Below the pieces are notes generated by a model. It ran no database searches, was not told where the DNA came from, and was given only the letters and a program-made list of their open reading frames with translations. This document shows positions 2,948 to 11,597 of a stretch of DNA of 64,000 bases, piece after piece. Each line of letters opens with the position of its first letter. The stretch's first letter is position 1. The stretch covers positions 2,752,001 to 2,816,000 of the forward strand of contig OY776562.1 of NCBI GenBank assembly GCA_963675785.1. Direction: 5' to 3'. Position numbers and translations under genes: made by a program. This stretch comes from Anaerolineae bacterium (lineage in GTDB: Bacteria > Chloroflexota > Anaerolineae > UBA1429).

Positions 2948-5095
2948 ATGGAAGAACAAACGGTCCTCTTACAATCAAAAGAGCTTCTTGATCGGGTACG
3001 CGCCTATTACCCTGAAGATGTAGAGCGTGTGCAGCACGCCATCGATTACGCCATCCAGGCGCATGATGGGCAGTTTCGCGTGTCTGGCGATCCTTATATC
3101 GTACACCCGCTTGAGGTAGCCATCATCCTTGCAGATTTGCAAATGGATGTCTCTACCGTCATTGCCGGCATATTGCACGATGTTGTTGAGGATACCGGGG
3201 TCACTCTGGAGGAACTATCCGAGCAGTTCGGATCCACAGTGGCTCAACTAGTAGATGGTGTTACCAAGCTGTTGCGTGTCAAACGAAAGAGCAAGGTAGA
3301 TACCGACGATCTGGACGACGAGCAGGCTGAAAATCTTCGCAAGATGATATTGGCCATGGTGGATGATATTCGAGTTGTCATCATCAAACTGGCCGATCGC
3401 CTGCATAACATGCGCACACTGAGTGCGCTACCCCGAGAGAAACAGATACGCAAAGCCCGTGAGACCCTTGAAGTGTACGCTCCCCTGGCCAACCGCATGG
3501 GTATCTGGCAGCTCAAATGGCAACTCGAGGATCTTTCTTTTCGTTATCTGAACGAAGAAAAGTATTACGAGATTGCACAATTGCTGGCCGAACGCCGTAG
3601 CGACCGCTCTGGCTACCTTGAGCGCGTCATCAACAGTATCAGAGATAACCTTGCTGCACAGGGCATCCAAGCCCGCATTACGGGCCGCCCCAAGCACATC
3701 TATAGCATTTACCGCAAGATGATGACTAAAGCACGCGTTTTTGACCATATCTATGACGTACGCGGTATTCGCATCATCGTTGATCAGGTGCAAGATTGCT
3801 ACCACGTGCTGGGCATAGTCCATACCATGTGGCGGCCTATCCCCGGCGAATTTGACGATTACATCGCCATGCCCAAAGACAATGGCTACCAATCGCTGCA
3901 TACGGCAGTGGTAGCCCTGGATGGTCGCCCTCTTGAAGTGCAAATCCGCACCGAAGAGATGCATCAGGTTGCCGAGTTCGGTATCGCCGCCCACTGGCGG
4001 TACAAAGAGGGAGTTAAACGGGATAAATCCATCGAAGACAAGATAGCCTGGCTGCGACAGGTGACTGACTGGCGCGAAGAAGTAGAAGATGCTGGCCAGT
4101 TTGTTGATTCGATGAAGAGCGATGTCTTTGTCGATCGTATCTATGTCTTTACCCCCAAAGGCGAGATCATTGACCTCCCCCAGGGGGCCACCCCCGTTGA
4201 TTTTGCATATCAGATCCACTCTGAGATTGGCCACCGCTGCCGCGGGGCCAAGATCGATGGCCGCCTTGTCGCGCTCGATTACAAACTCAAGACGGGCGAC
4301 CAGGTAGAGATCATCACTGCCAAACAGGGCAAGCCCAGTCGTGACTGGCTCAACTCCAGCCTGGGCTATGTTGCCACACAACGTGCACGTCAAAAGATTC
4401 GCCAGTGGTTTAGGCGGCAAGAGCGCGAACAGAACATCTCCGCAGGCCGCGAAATACTTGAGCGTGAATTACACCGTCTGGGGTTCGAACAGCAATCTTT
4501 TACCGAGATAGCTCACCTTTTCAAGTACGACCGTGTCGAAGACTTTATGGCCGCGCTTGGTTATGGCGATGTCAGCCGAACCCAAATCGCTGCCAAGATC
4601 GATGCGGCTGAGCAGAAAACCGACGGCCTCAAACTCAAGGATCTCACTTTTAGCAGCGATACCGAGGTTCAGGTCGATGGTGTTGGTGATCTGCTCACAA
4701 AATTCGGGCAATGCTGCAGCCCCGTGCCTGGTGATGCTATCGTGGGGTACATTACACGTGGCAAAGGTATTACCATTCACCGTGCCGATTGCCCCAACAT
4801 CGTCAACTTGGACGACAGCGAACGCCTGATTAATGTATCCTGGTCGCAAGGGGAAAAGATTTATGCCGTTCAGCTGCGCATAGACGCATTTGATCGACCA
4901 GGCATGTTAAGGGATATTGCTTCTATTGTTGCAGATGCAGGTATCAGTATGTCTTCCGTCAATGTGACTTCCAACCCTGATAGTACCACTACCATCAAAG
5001 CAAGCATGGGGGTTCATAGTGTTACTGAGTTAGCTTCCCTCATCAACAAGCTACAAGGCATTCGAGACATTCTGGATGTCACCAGAATGGCATAA
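2948..5095 (+). CDS. relA: Bifunctional (p)ppGpp synthetase/hydrolase (long RSH)
   Basis: HD hydrolase (ILHDVVED), synthetase (GRPKHIYSI, YQSLHT, EVQIRT), TGS, CC and ACT domains. Confidence 0.97.
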   Translation: MEEQTVLLQSKELLDRVRAYYPEDVERVQHAIDYAIQAHDGQFRVSGDPYIVHPLEVAIILADLQMDVSTVIAGILHDVVEDTGVTLEELSEQFGSTVAQLVDGVTKLLRVKRKSKVDTDDLDDEQAENLRKMILAMVDDIRVVIIKLADRLHNMRTLSALPREKQIRKARETLEVYAPLANRMGIWQLKWQLEDLSFRYLNEEKYYEIAQLLAERRSDRSGYLERVINSIRDNLAAQGIQARITGRPKHIYSIYRKMMTKARVFDHIYDVRGIRIIVDQVQDCYHVLGIVHTMWRPIPGEFDDYIAMPKDNGYQSLHTAVVALDGRPLEVQIRTEEMHQVAEFGIAAHWRYKEGVKRDKSIEDKIAWLRQVTDWREEVEDAGQFVDSMKSDVFVDRIYVFTPKGEIIDLPQGATPVDFAYQIHSEIGHRCRGAKIDGRLVALDYKLKTGDQVEIITAKQGKPSRDWLNSSLGYVATQRARQKIRQWFRRQEREQNISAGREILERELHRLGFEQQSFTEIAHLFKYDRVEDFMAALGYGDVSRTQIAAKIDAAEQKTDGLKLKDLTFSSDTEVQVDGVGDLLTKFGQCCSPVPGDAIVGYITRGKGITIHRADCPNIVNLDDSERLINVSWSQGEKIYAVQLRIDAFDRPGMLRDIASIVADAGISMSSVNVTSNPDSTTTIKASMGVHSVTELASLINKLQGIRDILDVTRMA

Positions 5096-5149: not shown

Positions 5150-6388
5150 CTAGAGATCAGGGATCATGGAAGATGTCCAATAACTCTTGACGTCATCCGC
5201 AGCACGTTGTTCTGCGAACCACGCATCCGCGGCATCCTCTTGCACAAGGCTAAGTGAGTATTCGTCCAATTCCATATCCTCAGCCTGGTCGGTCACTTTG
5301 AGCAATTCCCAACCATTCGACGTCTCAACCGGTTCGCTGGTCTCGCCAACTTCAAGTGCAAAGGCCACTTCAGCTAGCGCATCAGACATCTGCGCCGCAG
5401 GAACCCAACCAACTTCGGCACTCACGCTCATATCGAGATTCTCTTCACGCTCCTGAGCCATCTCCTCAAAGCTGGCCCCCGCGAGTACCAGTTCGCGTGC
5501 AGTCTGAGCTTCTTCCTCAGTATCAAAAGCCATTCGCCACAAATAGATCTGCTCGGCAGTAGTCGGGGCCTCTGCCATAATAGCATTCTGGACGGCCTCT
5601 AAATACAAAGAGTTTTCTACAAGCTTGTATAGATCCTCTTTGGTATACCCGGAGGCCGCCTCAATACTGGTGAAATAAGAGTCGGCTGTCGTCTCGTATT
5701 CTTCTTGTGTCATGGGTACTTCAGTAGGTGTTGCAGTAGCCTCAACTGTGGCGGTAACCGTCTCAGTTGTCGTAATAGAATCCGTCACTATTGCTGTAGG
5801 TACCGTAGTTGCTGTGGGAACAAGTGTCGCCGTAATAGTCTCAGCAGCAGCTATAGCAGTTGCCGAAGCTGCATCGGCTTCACGGTCATAGCCAAAGGTG
5901 CTCTCGACCTCAAGCTGAACCTCTTCATCCGTGATGACAATACCGCGAGCCTCTGCCTCGCGTCGAGCGATGGCATAGTTCAAGAGCTCGTCCAACACAG
6001 TTGTTGGCAGTTCCTGAATCTCTTGTTGAACAGTTTCAATCTCTGACTCGTACGTCGAGACAAGGAAGGACAAATCCTCACTCGAGTTAAAATAGTCAAC
6101 ATAGTCGTTCAGCGTCGAAAGCTCATCCCACAATGTTACAGCACGATAAGCATATAAACCTTGATAATCGGCCAATGTGATCTTTTGGTCGCCTACTCTG
6201 GCAACTGCCTTGTTTGGCTTCCATGAATACTCGTAAAGGGCACCAAAAACAAGAATCGACACAACCAAACCGATTACGCCGTAGGTGCTAATCTTGGCAA
6301 TGCGATCCATACGTTCCTGTCGAGCACGGTGTGACTTGTGCTTGGGGCTCAGGAACTCGTCAGAGGGTCTAACTGACTTTTTAGACAT
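5150..6388 (-). CDS. Membrane-anchored SurA/PrsA-like peptidyl-prolyl isomerase with Thr/Ala-rich linker
   Basis: N-terminal TM, VARVGDQKIT SurA-N, parvulin-like C-terminus (AFALEVGETSEPVETSNGW); start at ATG after AGGAG RBS. Confidence 0.85.
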   Translation of the reverse strand: MSKKSVRPSDEFLSPKHKSHRARQERMDRIAKISTYGVIGLVVSILVFGALYEYSWKPNKAVARVGDQKITLADYQGLYAYRAVTLWDELSTLNDYVDYFNSSEDLSFLVSTYESEIETVQQEIQELPTTVLDELLNYAIARREAEARGIVITDEEVQLEVESTFGYDREADAASATAIAAAETITATLVPTATTVPTAIVTDSITTTETVTATVEATATPTEVPMTQEEYETTADSYFTSIEAASGYTKEDLYKLVENSLYLEAVQNAIMAEAPTTAEQIYLWRMAFDTEEEAQTARELVLAGASFEEMAQEREENLDMSVSAEVGWVPAAQMSDALAEVAFALEVGETSEPVETSNGWELLKVTDQAEDMELDEYSLSLVQEDAADAWFAEQRAADDVKSYWTSSMIPDL

Positions 6389-6400
6389 ATCGTCTCCTAG

Positions 6401-6437
6401 AAACAAAAGAGGGGCACTGGCCAACGCCCATGCCCCT
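6401..6437 (-). terminator. Intrinsic terminator downstream of the S6-S18 gene
   Basis: Minus strand AGGGGCAT...GTGCCCCT followed by CTTTTGTTT. Confidence 0.6.
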
Positions 6438-6489
6438 ACCAAAGACCCCTGCAATCATTTCAGCTCTTGCCGCAAAGCGGTGCGAATGA

Positions 6490-7086
6490 CTAGTCGTTCT
6501 CACGCACGTGCGCAGGCGCATAAGGCAACAGAGCCATATAGCGAGATCGCTTGATGGCGTTAGAGAGCATGCGCTGGTGCTTGGCGCAGGAATTCGTCCG
6601 GCGTCGCGGCAGAATACGCCCACGCTGATTGACATAGCGTCGTAGAGTAGCTACATCCTTATAGTCGATCTCATCGATATTCTCAACACAAAAGTTGCAA
6701 ACCTTTTGATGATGACGGTGCGAACGCTGCTGATCTCCACCAGAGCGAGATCCACCCTCTTCATCCTGTTCTGCATCTTGGACTTCTTCGACGACAACTA
6801 CTGGCTCAACCCTGAGCATAATGTCGCGAAGTATGTCTTCAGACAGTCGCAGTGCTCGCTTGACAGCTTCAAGTGCGGGGTTACTCATCTCAGCAAGAAC
6901 CAAGACATAGTGCCCGTCCCGATATCGACCGATAGGATACGCCAGCTGCCTCTTGCCCATATCCGTCACTTTGGTTATAACACCCTCGTTCGAGGTAATG
7001 GTTTCTTTTACCTGCTCGACGAGAGCGTTGAGCTGCTCCTCTTCCAAAGTGGGCTGCACAACAAACAATAATTCGTAACTACGCAA
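6490..7086 (-). CDS. rpsF-rpsR: Fused 30S ribosomal protein S6-S18 (198 aa)
   Basis: TTG start after GGAGG; N-half is S6 ([24 protein letters not shown]); C-half is Zn-type S18 (CNFC, IDYKDV, GRILPRR, CAKHQR, AIKRSR); no stop between them. Confidence 0.92.
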
Positions 7087-7090
7087 GATG

Positions 7091-7165
7091 GTGCCTCCTC
7101 CCTGCGGATTCGCCCCACTCCTTTTTACGACGTTGGCCACGTCGTTACGGTGGGGCAGAAAGGTA
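7091..7165 (-). promoter_or_regulatory. Putative S6:S18-binding autoregulatory leader RNA
   Basis: GCCCCAC/GTGGGGC and ACGACGT/ACGTCGT stems, then an unpaired CCG just 5' of the GGAGG RBS, as in the known S6:S18 leader. Confidence 0.7.
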
Positions 7166-7195
7166 ACTATCGATGCGCCAAGCGCATCATCATAG

Positions 7196-7224
7196 ATTAT
7201 ACGTGCTAGCGCACGACCTGCCAA
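7196..7224 (-). promoter_or_regulatory. Sigma70-type promoter of rpsF-rpsR
   Basis: TTGGCA-17 bp-TATAAT on the minus strand. Confidence 0.7.
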
Positions 7225-7230
7225 AATGAG

Positions 7231-7908
7231 CTATGTTCTAGTCTCTCGGGCTTGTTCTAGTATAGCTGCAGACCATTCACAGCCACCTTTTTGCAAAGCA
7301 TAGGGGCATGCTTGTAACGGATGCACGGGGATATCCAATTCAAGGCTTGCAAGCGCATTATACAGATGGCAAAGCGGCAACCCCATTACGTTGGCATAGC
7401 ATTGTTGAATGCTCTCAACGGGCTGAAACGCATTGGACTGGATGGCATAAGCGCCCGCTTTGTCCATAGGGTTCCCCGTTGCGACATATTGGAATATCTC
7501 AGCATTTGTGTACTCTCGCATCTGCACAGGCGTAGTGGCCAGTTGTATGTTCGCAATGCCTCGCACTTGACAAATAACGGCCAAGCCCGTATGAACAAGG
7601 TGTTCTCGACCACGCAAACGCTGCAGCATTTCAACCGCTTGAGCCTCATCTGCGGGCTTACCCAAAACCGCATTATCGATGACAACCAGGGTATCCGCAG
7701 CAATAATGACCGATTCATGATACTCTTGGCTAACTACACAAGCCTTGGATTCAGCCAGGCGAAGAGCTAACGCCTCAGGGACTTCACAGTCATGGGGATT
7801 CTCGTCGACATCAGAAACAATTATATCGAAATGCAGACCTAAACTACCGAGTAGCTCGCTCCGCCGAGGTGAACCTGATGCCAATACAATCTGAATGACA
7901 TGATCCAA
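7231..7908 (-). CDS. maf: Maf family nucleoside triphosphate pyrophosphatase
   Basis: IVLASGSPRR, ADT..V..LGKP, DKAGAYAIQ, NVMGLP. Confidence 0.95.
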   Translation of the reverse strand: MDHVIQIVLASGSPRRSELLGSLGLHFDIIVSDVDENPHDCEVPEALALRLAESKACVVSQEYHESVIIAADTLVVIDNAVLGKPADEAQAVEMLQRLRGREHLVHTGLAVICQVRGIANIQLATTPVQMREYTNAEIFQYVATGNPMDKAGAYAIQSNAFQPVESIQQCYANVMGLPLCHLYNALASLELDIPVHPLQACPYALQKGGCEWSAAILEQARETRT

Positions 7909-8097: not shown

Positions 8098-8808
8098 ATG
8101 GACCCCAAGGCAAAATTACTCATTATTGATGATGATACAACACTGATCAAAGCCTTGGAGATGTATCTCACGCGAGAGGGCTATGAGGTACACCTTGCTA
8201 ATAATGGTATGGACGGCCTCAAGAGCTTTTACACATTGAGGCCGGAACTTGTTGTGCTTGATGTAATGATGCCCGAAATGGACGGCTGGGAGGCTTGCCG
8301 ACGTATACGTGAACTCTCGACCGTACCGATCATCATGCTCACCGCCAAAGGCCAAGAGAATGATCGGGTTATGGGTTTGAGGCTTGGCGCAGATGATTAC
8401 GTGCCTAAACCCTTTAGCCTTAAAGAACTCGTTGCCCGTGTTGAGGCTATCCTCCGCCGCACGAAAATGCAGGAATCTAGTACAAGCACGAATAATGTAT
8501 TGTATGTTACCGAGAACATCCTGATCGATTCGGAAAACTGGGAAGTTCGCCGTGATGGCGACCGCGTTGAGCTGACTTCGACAGAAATGCGCCTACTCTT
8601 TTACCTTGCCGAGAACGCCGGGCATGTCCTCTCGCATCAACAGCTCCTCCAAAAAGTGTGGGGACCCGAATACGTTGATAACATGGACTATACCAAACTG
8701 TATATCTGGCGACTCAGGCAAAAGATCGAGGAAGACCCCAAGAATCCCCGTTACATCCTCACTGCCAGGGGAATTGGATACAGAATGCAAAGAGCTGACG
8801 CGGTCTAG
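8098..8808 (+). CDS. OmpR/PhoB family response regulator (orphan, no adjacent kinase)
   Basis: Receiver (IIDDD, LDVMMPEMDG, MLTAK, ADDYVPKPF) plus winged helix (LRQKIEEDPKNPRYILTARGIGY). Confidence 0.95.
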   Translation: MDPKAKLLIIDDDTTLIKALEMYLTREGYEVHLANNGMDGLKSFYTLRPELVVLDVMMPEMDGWEACRRIRELSTVPIIMLTAKGQENDRVMGLRLGADDYVPKPFSLKELVARVEAILRRTKMQESSTSTNNVLYVTENILIDSENWEVRRDGDRVELTSTEMRLLFYLAENAGHVLSHQQLLQKVWGPEYVDNMDYTKLYIWRLRQKIEEDPKNPRYILTARGIGYRMQRADAV

Positions 8809-8976: not shown

Positions 8977-9510
8977 TTGCTAGAACCGGTGACTACCCTC
9001 AGAACGCGAACCCACAACCCAAATGAGACACGAATCCTGGGTGCTGCCTTGGGCAAAGAGCTTCAGGCTGGTTTTGTCGTCTGTTTGAATGGCGATTTGG
9101 GCTCAGGGAAAACATGCCTGACACAGGGCATCGCCAAGGGATTGTGTGTAAGCGGTGTCGTCAATAGCCCCACCTTTGTTTTTATCAACGAATACACTAC
9201 GCGAGAAAACGGCCTTTGTCTTTACCATGTTGACCTCTATCGCATCCAAAACTCTCTGGATGCACTGGCTCTCGGCCTAGAGGACTATATGTATGGCAAT
9301 GGCGTAACAGTTATAGAATGGCCCGAAAGGGCAATCGACCTCCTGCCGGAAGAATGTCTTTGGGTGCACCTAACTTATGTGGATGATCAGGAGCGCCAGT
9401 TTGTCATCAAAGCAGTAGGTGAGCGCTATATAAAGGCACTCAAGGCATTCCTTGATTCATCTCAAGATCTCGGCTTGACCCTGGAGACCCTCGATGCTGA
9501 TAGCAATTGA
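8977..9510 (+). CDS. tsaE: tRNA t6A37 biosynthesis ATPase
   Basis: GDLGSGKT, SPTF, HVDLYR, IEWP. Confidence 0.95.
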   Translation: MLEPVTTLRTRTHNPNETRILGAALGKELQAGFVVCLNGDLGSGKTCLTQGIAKGLCVSGVVNSPTFVFINEYTTRENGLCLYHVDLYRIQNSLDALALGLEDYMYGNGVTVIEWPERAIDLLPEECLWVHLTYVDDQERQFVIKAVGERYIKALKAFLDSSQDLGLTLETLDADSN

Positions 9511-10177
9511 TACAGCAACCCGCTTTGCAAGCGTATGCCTCTATGATGAGCAGGGCATTGTCGAAGAACATGCCTGGCGATCCAACAACAACCACTCGGT
9601 AGAGACACTACCGGTCATACACAACATGCTTACTCGTCAGGGCATAGTTTCTTCAGATATTGCTGCTATCGCCGTCGTTACGGGTCCCGGCTCCTTTACC
9701 GGCCTTCGCATTGGCATGAGCATTGGCAAAGGATTAGCCTTAGCGCTGGGCATTCCCATTTTAGGTATCCCAACGCTTGACGTAACCGCTTATGCAGCTG
9801 GAGATCCCGGCATGCCCGTTCTTGCTGTCCTCGAAATAGGAAGAAATCGGATATGCGTAGGCCGCTATACTTTTCAGGAAGGCTTGCCTGTCCTTGATCA
9901 AGACACTCTTCTCGTTTCTACCCAAGAATGGGTAGCTGATGCCTCTGAACCGGTCTTTGTTACCGGAGAGATAAGCGAAAAGTTGGCCACCAGATTGTTG
10001 GCTCAGGATAATGCCGAAAATATCTCGCTCTCTTCCATGGCAGGATCGATCCGTCGCTCTGGCTATCTGGCAGAACTTGCTTGGGAGCGCTTTTCTGCCG
10101 GGGAAAGCGATAACCTGGATACGCTAAGCCCGGTTTATGCTCATCATCCTCAATCTGGTACGGGATCAGAGGCATGA
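9494..10177 (+). CDS. tsaB: tRNA t6A37 biosynthesis protein
   Basis: LIAIDTAT, GPGSFTGLRIG. Confidence 0.95.
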   Translation: MLIAIDTATRFASVCLYDEQGIVEEHAWRSNNNHSVETLPVIHNMLTRQGIVSSDIAAIAVVTGPGSFTGLRIGMSIGKGLALALGIPILGIPTLDVTAYAAGDPGMPVLAVLEIGRNRICVGRYTFQEGLPVLDQDTLLVSTQEWVADASEPVFVTGEISEKLATRLLAQDNAENISLSSMAGSIRRSGYLAELAWERFSAGESDNLDTLSPVYAHHPQSGTGSEA

Positions 10178-10800
10178 AGCCCCTGGTGCTGGCTTCTCTG
10201 CCGTTTCGCATTCAAACCATGACTCCCGCACACATCCCTACAGTGGCAGCCATTGAAAAGGATACCTTTGGTGCCCCTTGGCCCGAAAGTGCCTTTGTGC
10301 AAGAAGTTTCTCATAACCCCTATTCAACCTATCTGATCCTTCAATACCTACCACCAACCAAACGAAAAAACTTGAATCTGACAAGCCCTTTCAGAAAGGG
10401 CAGAGTAGATCCATCTATTATTGGTTACGGCGGATTCTGGCAGATGGTCGATGAAGCACACATTTGCACGCTGGCCATGCGCCAGGACTGGAGAAGCCGA
10501 GGCCTTGGCGAGCTTTTGCTGCTCGCTCTCATCCGCCAGGCCATGGAACTCGATATTGAGCGGCTTTCCCTCGAAGTCCGTCTATCTAATACGATCGCCC
10601 AATCCTTATATCGCAAGTACGGCTTTGAGGTAGTGGGGGATCGGCCCAGATACTATTCTGATAATCAAGAAGATGCACTCATCATGACAACATCAGATGT
10701 ACGTACGCCAAACTACAAACAGACAGTGGTAGACTTGAGCAATGCATTGCTTGAGCAGCTCAATACGCTCGATTTAGAATCCCTGCCAACAGACAATTAG
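10174..10800 (+). CDS. rimI: Ribosomal protein S18 alanine N-acetyltransferase
   Basis: GNAT motifs RSRGLG, LEVRLSN..AQSLYRKYGF, YYSDNQEDALIM. Confidence 0.9.
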   Translation: MKPLVLASLPFRIQTMTPAHIPTVAAIEKDTFGAPWPESAFVQEVSHNPYSTYLILQYLPPTKRKNLNLTSPFRKGRVDPSIIGYGGFWQMVDEAHICTLAMRQDWRSRGLGELLLLALIRQAMELDIERLSLEVRLSNTIAQSLYRKYGFEVVGDRPRYYSDNQEDALIMTTSDVRTPNYKQTVVDLSNALLEQLNTLDLESLPTDN

Positions 10801-10823
10801 CCACTATGAAAAAGGAAAAAGCC

Positions 10824-11597
10824 ATGAGCGACGGCGCCCCGCTTGTTCTGCTGGCAAACGATGACGGTATTGCTGCTCCTGGTATTGCTGCTTTGTACGA
10901 ACAAATATCGCAGATTGCAGAAACCGTCGTTATTGCACCAGAGCGCAACTGGTCGGCATCGGGCCACAGCAAAACCATGCATAAACCTCTTAGGCTGTAC
11001 CAAGCACCTCTGATGAATGGCGCAATGGGCTGGGCCTGTAGTGGTTCTCCTTCAGACTGTGTGGCTGTTGCGCTACTTGGCGCGTTGGAAAGACGCCCCA
11101 CCATGGTCATTTCTGGCATCAACCAAGGGGCCAATGTTGCTCAGGACCTGACGTATTCTGGCACTGTATCCGCTGCCATGGAAGCCGTGATTGGCGGCGT
11201 TCCTGGGATTGCTATCTCTCTTAATAGCTATACCTCAACGCGCTTTGACATCGCTGCCGAATTTGCTGCATTGCTGACAAAACGCCTCTTGAGCGAGCCC
11301 AATGAACCGCCTCTGCTGCTCAACGTCAATGTCCCTGCTCTTGAACGGGATGAGATCAATGGCATTGAAATCACACGCCTTGGCAGGCGCATCTATCGTG
11401 ACGCGCTCATCAAAAGAGTGGACCCCAGAGGCAGACCCTATTTCTGGATCGGTGGGGAAGAACCTGATGGCGTCATAGAGGATAAAACCGATATTGGCGC
11501 GCTTGCTAACCAGCGTATTTCCATCACACCGCTCCATCTGGATATGACCGATGTGGAAAACTTGCAAACAGTTGCTGATCTCAAGCTAGATTGGTGA
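10824..11597 (+). CDS. surE: 5'/3'-nucleotidase SurE
   Basis: LLANDDG, GSPSDCV, SGINQGAN, YSGTVSAAMEA; alternative start at 10806. Confidence 0.95.
   Translation: MSDGAPLVLLANDDGIAAPGIAALYEQISQIAETVVIAPERNWSASGHSKTMHKPLRLYQAPLMNGAMGWACSGSPSDCVAVALLGALERRPTMVISGINQGANVAQDLTYSGTVSAAMEAVIGGVPGIAISLNSYTSTRFDIAAEFAALLTKRLLSEPNEPPLLLNVNVPALERDEINGIEITRLGRRIYRDALIKRVDPRGRPYFWIGGEEPDGVIEDKTDIGALANQRISITPLHLDMTDVENLQTVADLKLDW

Follow-up and report, generated by a model that had tools for sequence, protein, structure and literature searches.

One gene for the ribosomal proteins bS6 and bS18 in an Anaerolineae bacterium: reading frame, leader RNA and recurrent origin of a natural fusion

Introduction

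The small-subunit ribosomal proteins S6 and S18 (bS6 and bS18) form an obligate pair, and both the 16S rRNA and their own mRNA are bound only by the heterodimer. In the 64-kb stretch of DNA analyzed here (64,000 nucleotides of contig OY776562.1 from an Anaerolineae bacterium; referred to as "the window", to which coordinates apply unless stated otherwise), the genes rpsF and rpsR are represented by one open reading frame (ORF). This raises the questions of whether the joined gene is real, how it came about, and whether a pair of proteins can do its work as a single chain. According to the accessible part of PMC3895269, S18 is poorly soluble without S6, and the corresponding part of PMC4647458 presents the E. 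coli S6:S18 complex as the repressor, with S18 as the RNA-binding partner. We propose, with a probability of about 0.78, that the gene is a fusion that originated in two steps and encodes a tethered S6:S18 heterodimer, which as one chain would enter the 30S subunit and repress its own mRNA.

One reading frame encodes complete bS6 and bS18

The rpsF-rpsR fusion ORF (minus strand, 7086-6490) comprises 198 codons and a TAG stop and encodes a complete bS6, a 33-residue acidic/Gly/Ser linker, and a complete Cys-bearing bS18; with its leader, the fused coding sequence (CDS) makes up the span 6490-7165. The S6 part is matched by PF01250 (Ribosomal_S6; residues 4-91, E 1.7e-27, 95.8 bits against a cut-off of 27, profile positions 2-89 of 90) and by the S6 equivalog TIGR00166 (residues 2-94, 87.6 bits, cut-off 42.9, positions 2-94 of 95). 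The S18 part is matched by PF01084 (Ribosomal_S18; residues 136-187, E 4e-25, 88.1 bits, cut-off 21, positions 1-52 of 52) and by the S18 equivalog TIGR00165 (residues 126-190, 95.9 bits, cut-off 38.75, positions 4-68 of 70). Moreover, C128-x2-C131, C164, and H167 are present, and relatives in the family share C.FC...C[AS][KR]HQR; this C-x2-C...C-x2-H pattern marks the Zn form of S18, to which the domain may belong.

The ORF as called mechanically, 7224-6490 on the minus strand, is 244 amino acids (aa) long and begins at an upstream TTG. The supported start is the TTG at 7086-7084, 6 nt downstream of the Shine-Dalgarno (SD) sequence GGGAGGAGG, and it is preferred because an SD precedes it and because the resulting N-terminus, MRSYELLF, is common to all relatives. 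From codon 91 to codon 136 there is neither an in-frame stop nor an ATG, GTG, TTG, CTG, ATT, ATC, or ATA. The codons that flank this stretch are an ATG inside S6 (codon 90) and an ATC past the S18 CxxC (codon 137). Since codons 91-136 lack start codons, a complete S18, with its CxxC from residue 128, is not separately startable. An internal S18 start was considered and rejected for lack of both start and near-cognate codons in this stretch. The two halves of the linker are the former S6 tail (acidic) and a remnant of the S18 N-terminal extension (Gly/Ser/Arg/His).

An AlphaFold2 model calculated on a 25-sequence alignment (A1, see below) has a mean predicted local distance difference test (pLDDT) score of 86.8 and a predicted template modeling (pTM) score of 0.78. 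Confidence is high in both domains (pLDDT 95-97 for residues 1-90, 92-97 for residues 131-190) and drops to ~50 in residues 101-120. The strands (E) and helices (H) of the S6 part, E2-10, H16-32, E36-52, E55-67, H69-81, and E85-93, give the split beta-alpha-beta fold. The top Foldseek matches are S6 chains (E 1e-11, TM to target up to 0.97), and the best PDB sequence matches of the S18 part are bS18 chains. The pTM of 0.78 suggests that the domains would be packed as in the heterodimer.

The genome consists of one contig of 3,217,757 bp with an estimated completeness of 94.8%. A six-frame search with both Pfam families finds exactly one S6 and one S18 match, both in the fusion ORF; a second copy of either gene elsewhere in the genome was rejected on this basis. 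The SSB gene lies away from the locus (G000:C1:2200464-2200778, 104.6 bits). Taken together, these results bear out what an initial annotation of the locus had described, i.e., one 198-aa ORF with a full S6, an acidic/Gly linker free of stop codons and of ATG, GTG, and TTG, and a full S18, with no ssb between the two parts; all four profiles score above their cut-offs, and near-cognate starts are absent from the linker as well. A second, weaker SSB-family match (G000:C1:1388434-1388736; 40.3 bits, over the cut-off, in a 263-aa open frame) also lies elsewhere and may represent a paralogue or the SSB of a mobile element.

The leader RNA has the architecture of the S6:S18 motif

In the accessible part of PMC3854524, the S6:S18 motif is placed directly 5′ of rpsF, including the ribosome-binding site, and consists of an irregular hairpin of 7-25 bp with a bulged loop of 8-23 nt; a CCR in the bulge lies 2-3 nt ahead of the SD, which is part of the stem. 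The same part of that source states that S18 Lys71 and Arg74 (Thermus numbering) read the CCG bulge. All four features, i.e., the position 5′ of rpsF, the hairpin with an 8-nt bulged loop, the CCR ahead of the SD, and an SD that forms part of the stem, are present here. The loop is GAAUCCGC, in which the CCG at 7107-7105 precedes a C, an A, and GGGAGGAGG; between the element and the TTG start lie 6 nt, ACCAUC. On the protein side, K179 and R182 of the fusion, within a KRSR motif that aligns with the conserved KRAR, correspond to Thermus Lys71 and Arg74 in our reading of the alignment.

In RNAfold, the 73-nt element forms a P1+P2 stem that is capped by an apical hairpin and carries a loop of 8 nt on its 3′ side. 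In the class, the 5′ regions share CCUUUCU-GCUCCnn, a variable hairpin, nnGGGGC, an 8-nt loop (AAaCCCAg), and then GAAAGGAGG, and nearly all of them fold singly into the same shape. Relatives carry CCCA or UCCA at the CCG site; most have CCA, which conforms to the published CCR. An alignment of the leaders of 29 relatives, with this genome left out, has 91.5% of its cells paired as compared to 85.8% in shuffles and 41-63% in slid controls. Eight of its 16 pairs are changed on both sides, and none of 500 shuffles reaches its covariation score. The covariance model derived from it, R1, has a single match when both strands of the window are searched, at 7165-7093 (-) with 44.2 bits (E 4.1e-10).

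The initial annotation had claimed that a CCG-containing autoregulatory leader was kept. The R1 match and the four published features agree with this claim, whereas the RpsF_leader model of Rfam 15, RF02893, misses the leader: it has no match in the window at its gathering score. Likewise, an Rfam scan of 20 loci (this genome and 19 relatives, E <= 1) returned no rpsF leader, only two tRNAs and chance matches. Because the E. coli leader, used as a positive control for RF02893, scores 110.1 bits, we put the miss down to a narrow model. No model score links the present leader to the validated ones, and its homology to them therefore rests on shared architecture. Hence, the leader is classified as having the same architecture as the S6:S18 motif and not as a proven member of RF02893. 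By analogy with the known systems, the leader would be bound by S6:S18, and translation would thereby be repressed also in this organism.

How a tethered heterodimer would work, and whether the chain stays whole

We propose the following scenario. The chain would fold as an intramolecular S6:S18 heterodimer and would bind the central domain of 16S rRNA next to S15 as one unit. Chain made in excess would bind the CCG bulge of its own leader, the stem of which holds the SD, and would in this way repress its own translation. The known S6:S18 autoregulation would thus be carried out by a single-chain repressor. The tether would ensure a 1:1 stoichiometry and would make translational coupling unnecessary.

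Among the alternatives, the one that survives best, although we consider it unlikely, holds that one chain is translated and that a protease then cuts the disordered linker, yielding separate S6 and S18, with the new S18 N-terminus perhaps serving as a substrate for RimI. With a pLDDT of ~50, the linker is predicted to be disordered and would be accessible, and the sequence data would allow processing. Against this reading, the linkers show no conserved motif for cleavage: those of the two family fusions (see below) share only four of 26 positions, and in other lineages the linkers vary from ~5 to 53 residues, with sequences that are not related to one another.

The retention of a RimI-family gene has been the other argument in favor of cleavage. 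In E. coli, RimI acetylates the N-terminal Ala of S18 that is exposed by removal of Met. The linker contains only one Ala, which fits poorly with such a substrate. Given that the fused S18 has no free N-terminus, acetylation of this kind is inapplicable unless the chain is cut. Judged from a reading of the starts, most unfused relatives would begin S18 with Met-Ala-Asp/Glu, and the nearest kin of the window with Met-Thr. As claimed in the initial annotation, a RimI-family gene is encoded ~3.1 kb from the fusion (TIGR01575, match at 10174-10797, 111.9 bits), after tsaE and tsaB (Table 1). The conclusion drawn there, that RimI may have another substrate or that the fusion may be cleaved, is weak, as each of five genomes tested (three fused and two unfused) has one TIGR01575 match over the cut-off. 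The presence of the gene says little about S18 or cleavage because it is kept alike in fused and unfused genomes, in its usual tsaE-tsaB-rimI cluster; its retention needs no cleavage. In G008, the nearest unfused relative, a RimI-family match is found at a similar distance (~4 kb) from rpsF-rpsR.

Loss of ssb preceded the fusion

The rpsF-rpsR locus was read directly in 48 genomes, 33 from the family of this bacterium and 15 from other families of the class. An ssb homologue lies between rpsF and rpsR at 14 of the 15 loci from other families as compared to none of the 33 family loci; at the fifteenth, no ssb was found with this query in a gap of 824 nt. A second family, f52 (loci L089-L092 in G183, G308, G348, and G328), also lacks ssb between the two genes.

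Searching 42 family genomes gave matches in 39, three of which have a stop-free full-length ORF (G000, i.e., this genome, G002, and G041); G007 has a TAG between the two parts, and 35 have two separate matches. Frames were inspected in 33 of the 39; three have the genes on different contigs, and three were left out. Of 401 genomes sampled evenly across the class, seven pass E 1e-36, and two of these are stop-free. A search of genome contigs for related loci retrieved S18 relatives at 33 sites (from Chloroflexota, Anaerolineae, Limnocylindria, and others), and neither the window's own record nor a further fusion was among them. Open-frame figures had suggested that many relatives are fused; this was rejected, as direct reading of the loci shows stops. 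In the unfused family loci, S6 and S18 share a frame in about one third, which matches chance.

The usual layout in the family is two adjacent genes with a spacer that holds an SD and a TTG or GTG start, and the unfused S18 proteins are extended at the N-terminus by a long disordered segment in which Arg, Gly, Asp, Glu, and Ser abound. The initial annotation had attributed the joining of the genes to the loss of ssb from the operon. The loss itself is seen throughout the family (0 of 33 loci with ssb), but only three of 39 family genomes are fused. Loss of ssb is an earlier, permissive step at the base of the family, and the fusion is a later, small deletion. In the family ancestor, ssb would have left its place between rpsF and rpsR, giving adjacent genes with a short spacer that carries an SD and a TTG/GTG start. 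In the present lineage, a short deletion would then have taken out the segment from the rpsF stop through the spacer to the rpsR start, together with much of the long disordered extension at the S18 N-terminus, joining the acidic S6 tail in frame to the remnant of the extension. Events of the same kind would have taken place separately in a second genus of the family, where two species are affected, and in phyla not related to this one.

Such a deletion can be followed in the genus of G002 and G041. Its members G043 and G044 are unfused and keep the stop, the spacer, the SD, and a GTG start. In a junction alignment with these two, the fused G002 and G041 miss 56-62 nt, exactly the segment from the rpsF stop across spacer and SD to the GTG start, and the acidic S6 tail now runs into approximately residue 3 of S18. 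The spacers in G043 and G044 resemble those of many other genera (AGGAGGCT..[TG]TG GC.), and on account of this likeness they are taken as ancestral, not regained.

Several further observations concern these loci. The low-complexity extension in unfused family S18 proteins covers ~40-70 residues ahead of the CxxC, and family S6 proteins often have a long acidic tail of up to ~50 residues (G019, G020, and G023); most of the extension and most of the tail were lost in the fusions. In f52, the two genes are in the same frame, separated by a 15-30-nt spacer with SD and TTG and by one or two stops of differing kind, and the f52 arrangement is one small deletion short of a fusion. In G042, of the same genus as G002 and G041, the genes are separate and S6 is interrupted by N. 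In G002, two tRNA genes lie directly upstream of the fused gene (L004 1136-1292; Rfam tRNA, 70 and 66 bits), and its neighborhood therefore differs from that in the window.

Two independent fusions in one family

The maximum-likelihood tree of S6+S18 comprises 46 rows and 163 columns, without G011 and G042, which are truncated or contain N. This genome is sister to the unfused G008+G018 (96/97), while G002+G041 (99/100) are nested within their own genus (100/100), and the fused/unfused state needs two changes on the tree. Constraining all fused members to one clade costs 46.7 log-likelihood units, with p 0.033 in the approximately unbiased (AU) test. The linkers of the two family fusions are identical at four of 26 positions. 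Judged from the sequences, the fusion arose at least twice within the family, once in this genome and once in G002+G041.

A single old fusion, inherited by all fused lineages from their common ancestor and undone by fission wherever relatives are unfused, is less probable still than cleavage of the linker. In its favor, the starred branches alone force only one origin, 52% of the bootstrap trees allow one change among the labeled rows, p-AU is only 0.033, and the N-terminus MRSYELLF is common to this genome and the other fused genus. A fission would, however, have to re-create a spacer, an SD, and a start, and the spacers in G043 and G044 look ancestral. The unrelated linkers point in the same direction, as does the grouping of this genome with the unfused G008+G018, of which G008 shares its ~4-kb spacing between rpsF-rpsR and rimI.

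The fused frame is genuine

Contigs from three sequencing runs in three studies (word depth 59, 239, and 12) span 6300-7400 without indels, and no more than one letter differs; as these runs may include the source of the assembly, this cover is weak independent support for the frame. A metagenome protein encoded on a separate short contig, P0002, is 98% identical and likewise has 198 aa in one frame. A more distant metagenome protein, P0003 (80% identity, 209 aa as called), is also encoded in one frame, with in-frame indels in the linker. Identity to P0003 amounts to 76/93 in S6, 62/71 in S18, and 22/32 aligned positions plus three gap columns in the linker, a distribution expected, on sequence grounds, for a tether that is translated but under weak constraint.

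That the real genome has two genes, joined in the assembly by a collapsed deletion or a missed base, is hardly credible and already nearly refuted: even if the three near-identical DNA runs stem from one culture or assembly source, their contigs agree without indels at depths of 12-239, P0002 sits on a contig of its own, P0003 has the same architecture with in-frame differences, G002 and G041 show it in other assemblies, and S18 has no alternative start. The fusion is genuine and not an assembly slip, and it is the only source of S6 and S18 in this organism.

Points on the other side

Several observations weigh against the model of a tethered, autoregulating heterodimer or against parts of it. 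In a 110-nt fold that includes the start-codon region, the minimum free energy structure pairs the SD with the start-codon region and not with CCUUUCU. The covariance search with the RpsF_leader model, which the initial annotation had proposed, turned out negative, with no RF02893 match in 6900-7500 even at E <= 10; in the reverse direction, R1 scores the E. coli locus at 7.8 bits (E 0.18) and in a mis-registered alignment. As to the protein, pTM is an indirect sign of domain packing, and the linker may be cleaved. The three DNA runs may include the assembly's own source and may be one strain, and the only RNA contig (X19, 207 nt) covers 6448-6654, not the junction. The tree is built on only 163 columns of the fused proteins themselves, with a modest p-AU of 0.033.

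Fusions in other lineages

Searched exhaustively with phmmer, a set of 1.84 billion representatives yielded 12,885 matches at E <= 0.001, and among the best 150 of these, 25 proteins with matches over both halves were picked. Four were dropped, P0023, P0047, and P0085 because the middle looked frame-shifted or a domain truncated, and P0016 because it merely has a long linker. The 21 proteins kept, together with P0001, P0003, and the proteins of G002 and G041, constitute alignment A1, and both Pfam domains are present in all 25 sequences. Outside close kin, the A1 proteins are 27-38% identical to the protein encoded in the window, their linkers have ~5 to 53 residues of unrelated sequence, and many other-lineage fusions lack the S18 Cys residues. 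The fusion is thus not unique to this genome, being present in G002, in G041, and in other phyla.

A cluster from Gemmatimonadota/Longimicrobiales (P0142) is found on 13 contigs from several sources. One of its members is named "ribosomal protein S18/ribosomal protein S6"; the fusions in databases carry automatic annotation only, as S6, as S18, or as "S18/S6". To judge by their sequences, P0017, P0021, P0032, and others resemble proteobacterial S6 and S18. The fusions in other lineages are evidently independent events, and the architecture is rare but recurrent and is already present in sequence databases.

In the literature searched, outside subscription journals, no description of a natural bS6-bS18 fusion was found. 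A section of a 2024 review entitled "bS6 and bS18 act in tandem" (PMC10931766) makes no mention of a fusion in its accessible part. Of 126 distinct sequences matched in the PDB, none of the best 60 spans both domains. A natural S6-S18 fusion has apparently not been described or studied so far.

Genomic context

The positions of the features are collected in Table 1. The promoter candidate is the only such site in 6300-7350; with a shuffle mean of 1.1, this count is not significant, but the candidate is plausible because it is placed just upstream of the leader. The terminator-like site is the only one in the region (shuffle mean 0.7) and is weak alone. The two candidates would bracket a monocistronic unit, as judged from consensus matches only.

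In the public annotation (P0166, NCBI/ENA), the gene encodes 244 aa from TTG 7224, which lies in the -35 hexamer of the promoter candidate; the candidate is thus within the annotated ORF, and the 46 extra codons overlie the conserved leader. This start is probably miscalled too far upstream, engulfing both promoter and leader.

Among the neighbors, a Maf-like protein is encoded directly upstream of the promoter of the fusion. The downstream neighbor is an ORF whose product has a rotamase domain of the PpiC type. The TTG at 6454, listed as the start of this ORF, falls within the terminator-like hairpin behind the fusion gene, and the real start looks like an ATG ~22 codons further in (MSKKSV...).

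Table 1. Features at and around the fused gene (window coordinates; strand as + or -)
Feature	Positions	Strand	Basis or details
Fused rpsF-rpsR CDS	6490..7086	-	198 codons + TAG; TTG start 7086-7084
bS6 domain, residues 1-94	6805..7086	-	PF01250, TIGR00166, AlphaFold, Foldseek
Linker, residues 95-127	6706..6804	-	acidic first half, then Gly/Ser/Arg/His half
bS18 domain, residues 128-198, C128-x2-C131...C164-x2-H167	6493..6705	-	PF01084, TIGR00165, AlphaFold, PDB matches
Leader, S6:S18-binding type	7093..7165	-	covariance model R1, fold, published features
Shine-Dalgarno GGGAGGAGG, partly the 3′ strand of leader stem P1	7094..7102	-	position, fold
Sigma-70-type promoter candidate TTGGCA-17 nt-TATAAT	7196..7224	-	11/12 consensus matches
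Intrinsic-terminator-like hairpin and T tract, ~60 nt past the stop	6402..6429	-	stem 6429-6412, 7 pairs, tail CTCTTTTGTT
RimI-family GNAT acetyltransferase	10174..10800	+	TIGR01575, 111.9 bits, cut-off 86.4
Row tsaE-tsaB-rimI-surE	8977-11597	+	
tsaE	8977-9510	+	
tsaB	9494-10177	+	
Full-length RelA/SpoT homologue	2948-5095	+	HD, RelA_SpoT, TGS, ACT domains
PpiC-type rotamase-domain ORF, 434 aa	5150-6454	-	SurA-like N-terminal matches
Maf-like protein	7231-7908	-	
OmpR-type response regulator	8098-8808	+	

Implications

The recurrent fusions indicate that an essential function survives when the C-terminus of S6 is connected to the N-terminus of S18, even though the linkers differ widely in length and sequence. 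A natural single-chain S6-S18 would be a well-behaved reagent for studies of 30S central-domain assembly and of autoregulation through the rpsF leader. Moreover, the RimI-family gene persists where the substrate end that gave the family its name is gone, and this persistence supports other work for these GNATs in most bacteria. On the practical side, labeling fusions as "S6" only or "S18" only can mislead marker-gene counts and completeness estimates.

A more far-reaching idea, which we regard as doubtful, is that the tether is no neutral accident but a selected, recurrent solution that alters both the assembly and the regulation of the 30S platform. It would allow binding to the S15-primed central domain in one step without prior concentration-dependent dimerization and would provide a monomeric autorepressor; the acidic, disordered linker, lying on the platform by the anti-SD pocket formed by bS6, bS18, and bS21, could tune SD-dependent initiation, and sites for RimI/RimK-type modification would be lost. 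If so, these lineages would have given up a RimI-/RimK-type layer of ribosome regulation along with the S18 N-terminus and the S6 C-terminus.

Comparison with known systems

Relative to the bS6:bS18 heterodimer encoded in the rpsF-(ssb/priB)-rpsR operon, the fusion has the same full-length domains, which match solved S6 and S18 chains, the same S18 KRxR residues, and the same promoter-leader-SD layout before rpsF. It differs in being one covalent chain, with neither ssb/priB nor an rpsR start, and in having no free S6 C-terminus or S18 N-terminus.

The leader shares with the rpsF leader, as this is presented in RF02893 and in the accessible parts of PMC3854524 (Matelska 2013), PMC3895269 (Fu 2014), and PMC4647458 (Babina 2015), the site 5′ of rpsF, the 8-nt 3′ bulged loop, and the CCG 2 nt ahead of the SD strand. 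It also has the contiguous 5′ strand and the asymmetric 3′ loop with UCCG of the E. coli consensus, whereas neither RF02893 nor the R1 model connects the two. Moreover, the repressor would in the present case be a single chain.

The S6+S18 fusions in databases (the P0142 cluster, P0017, P0021, and P0032) have the same order, S6 and then S18, and a disordered linker; they differ in that the identity is 27-38%, the linkers are unrelated, and many lack the S18 Cys residues. In the human mitoribosome, bS6m and bS18m are reportedly chains bridged by a [2Fe-2S] cluster. The accessible part of PMC11791143 describes human mitoribosomal proteins bridged by such a cluster. Both cases tie ribosomal proteins together beyond plain protein contacts, but in the mitoribosome this is achieved by a metal-cluster bridge between separate chains in an organelle, and in the bacterium studied here, which is free-living, by a peptide bond.

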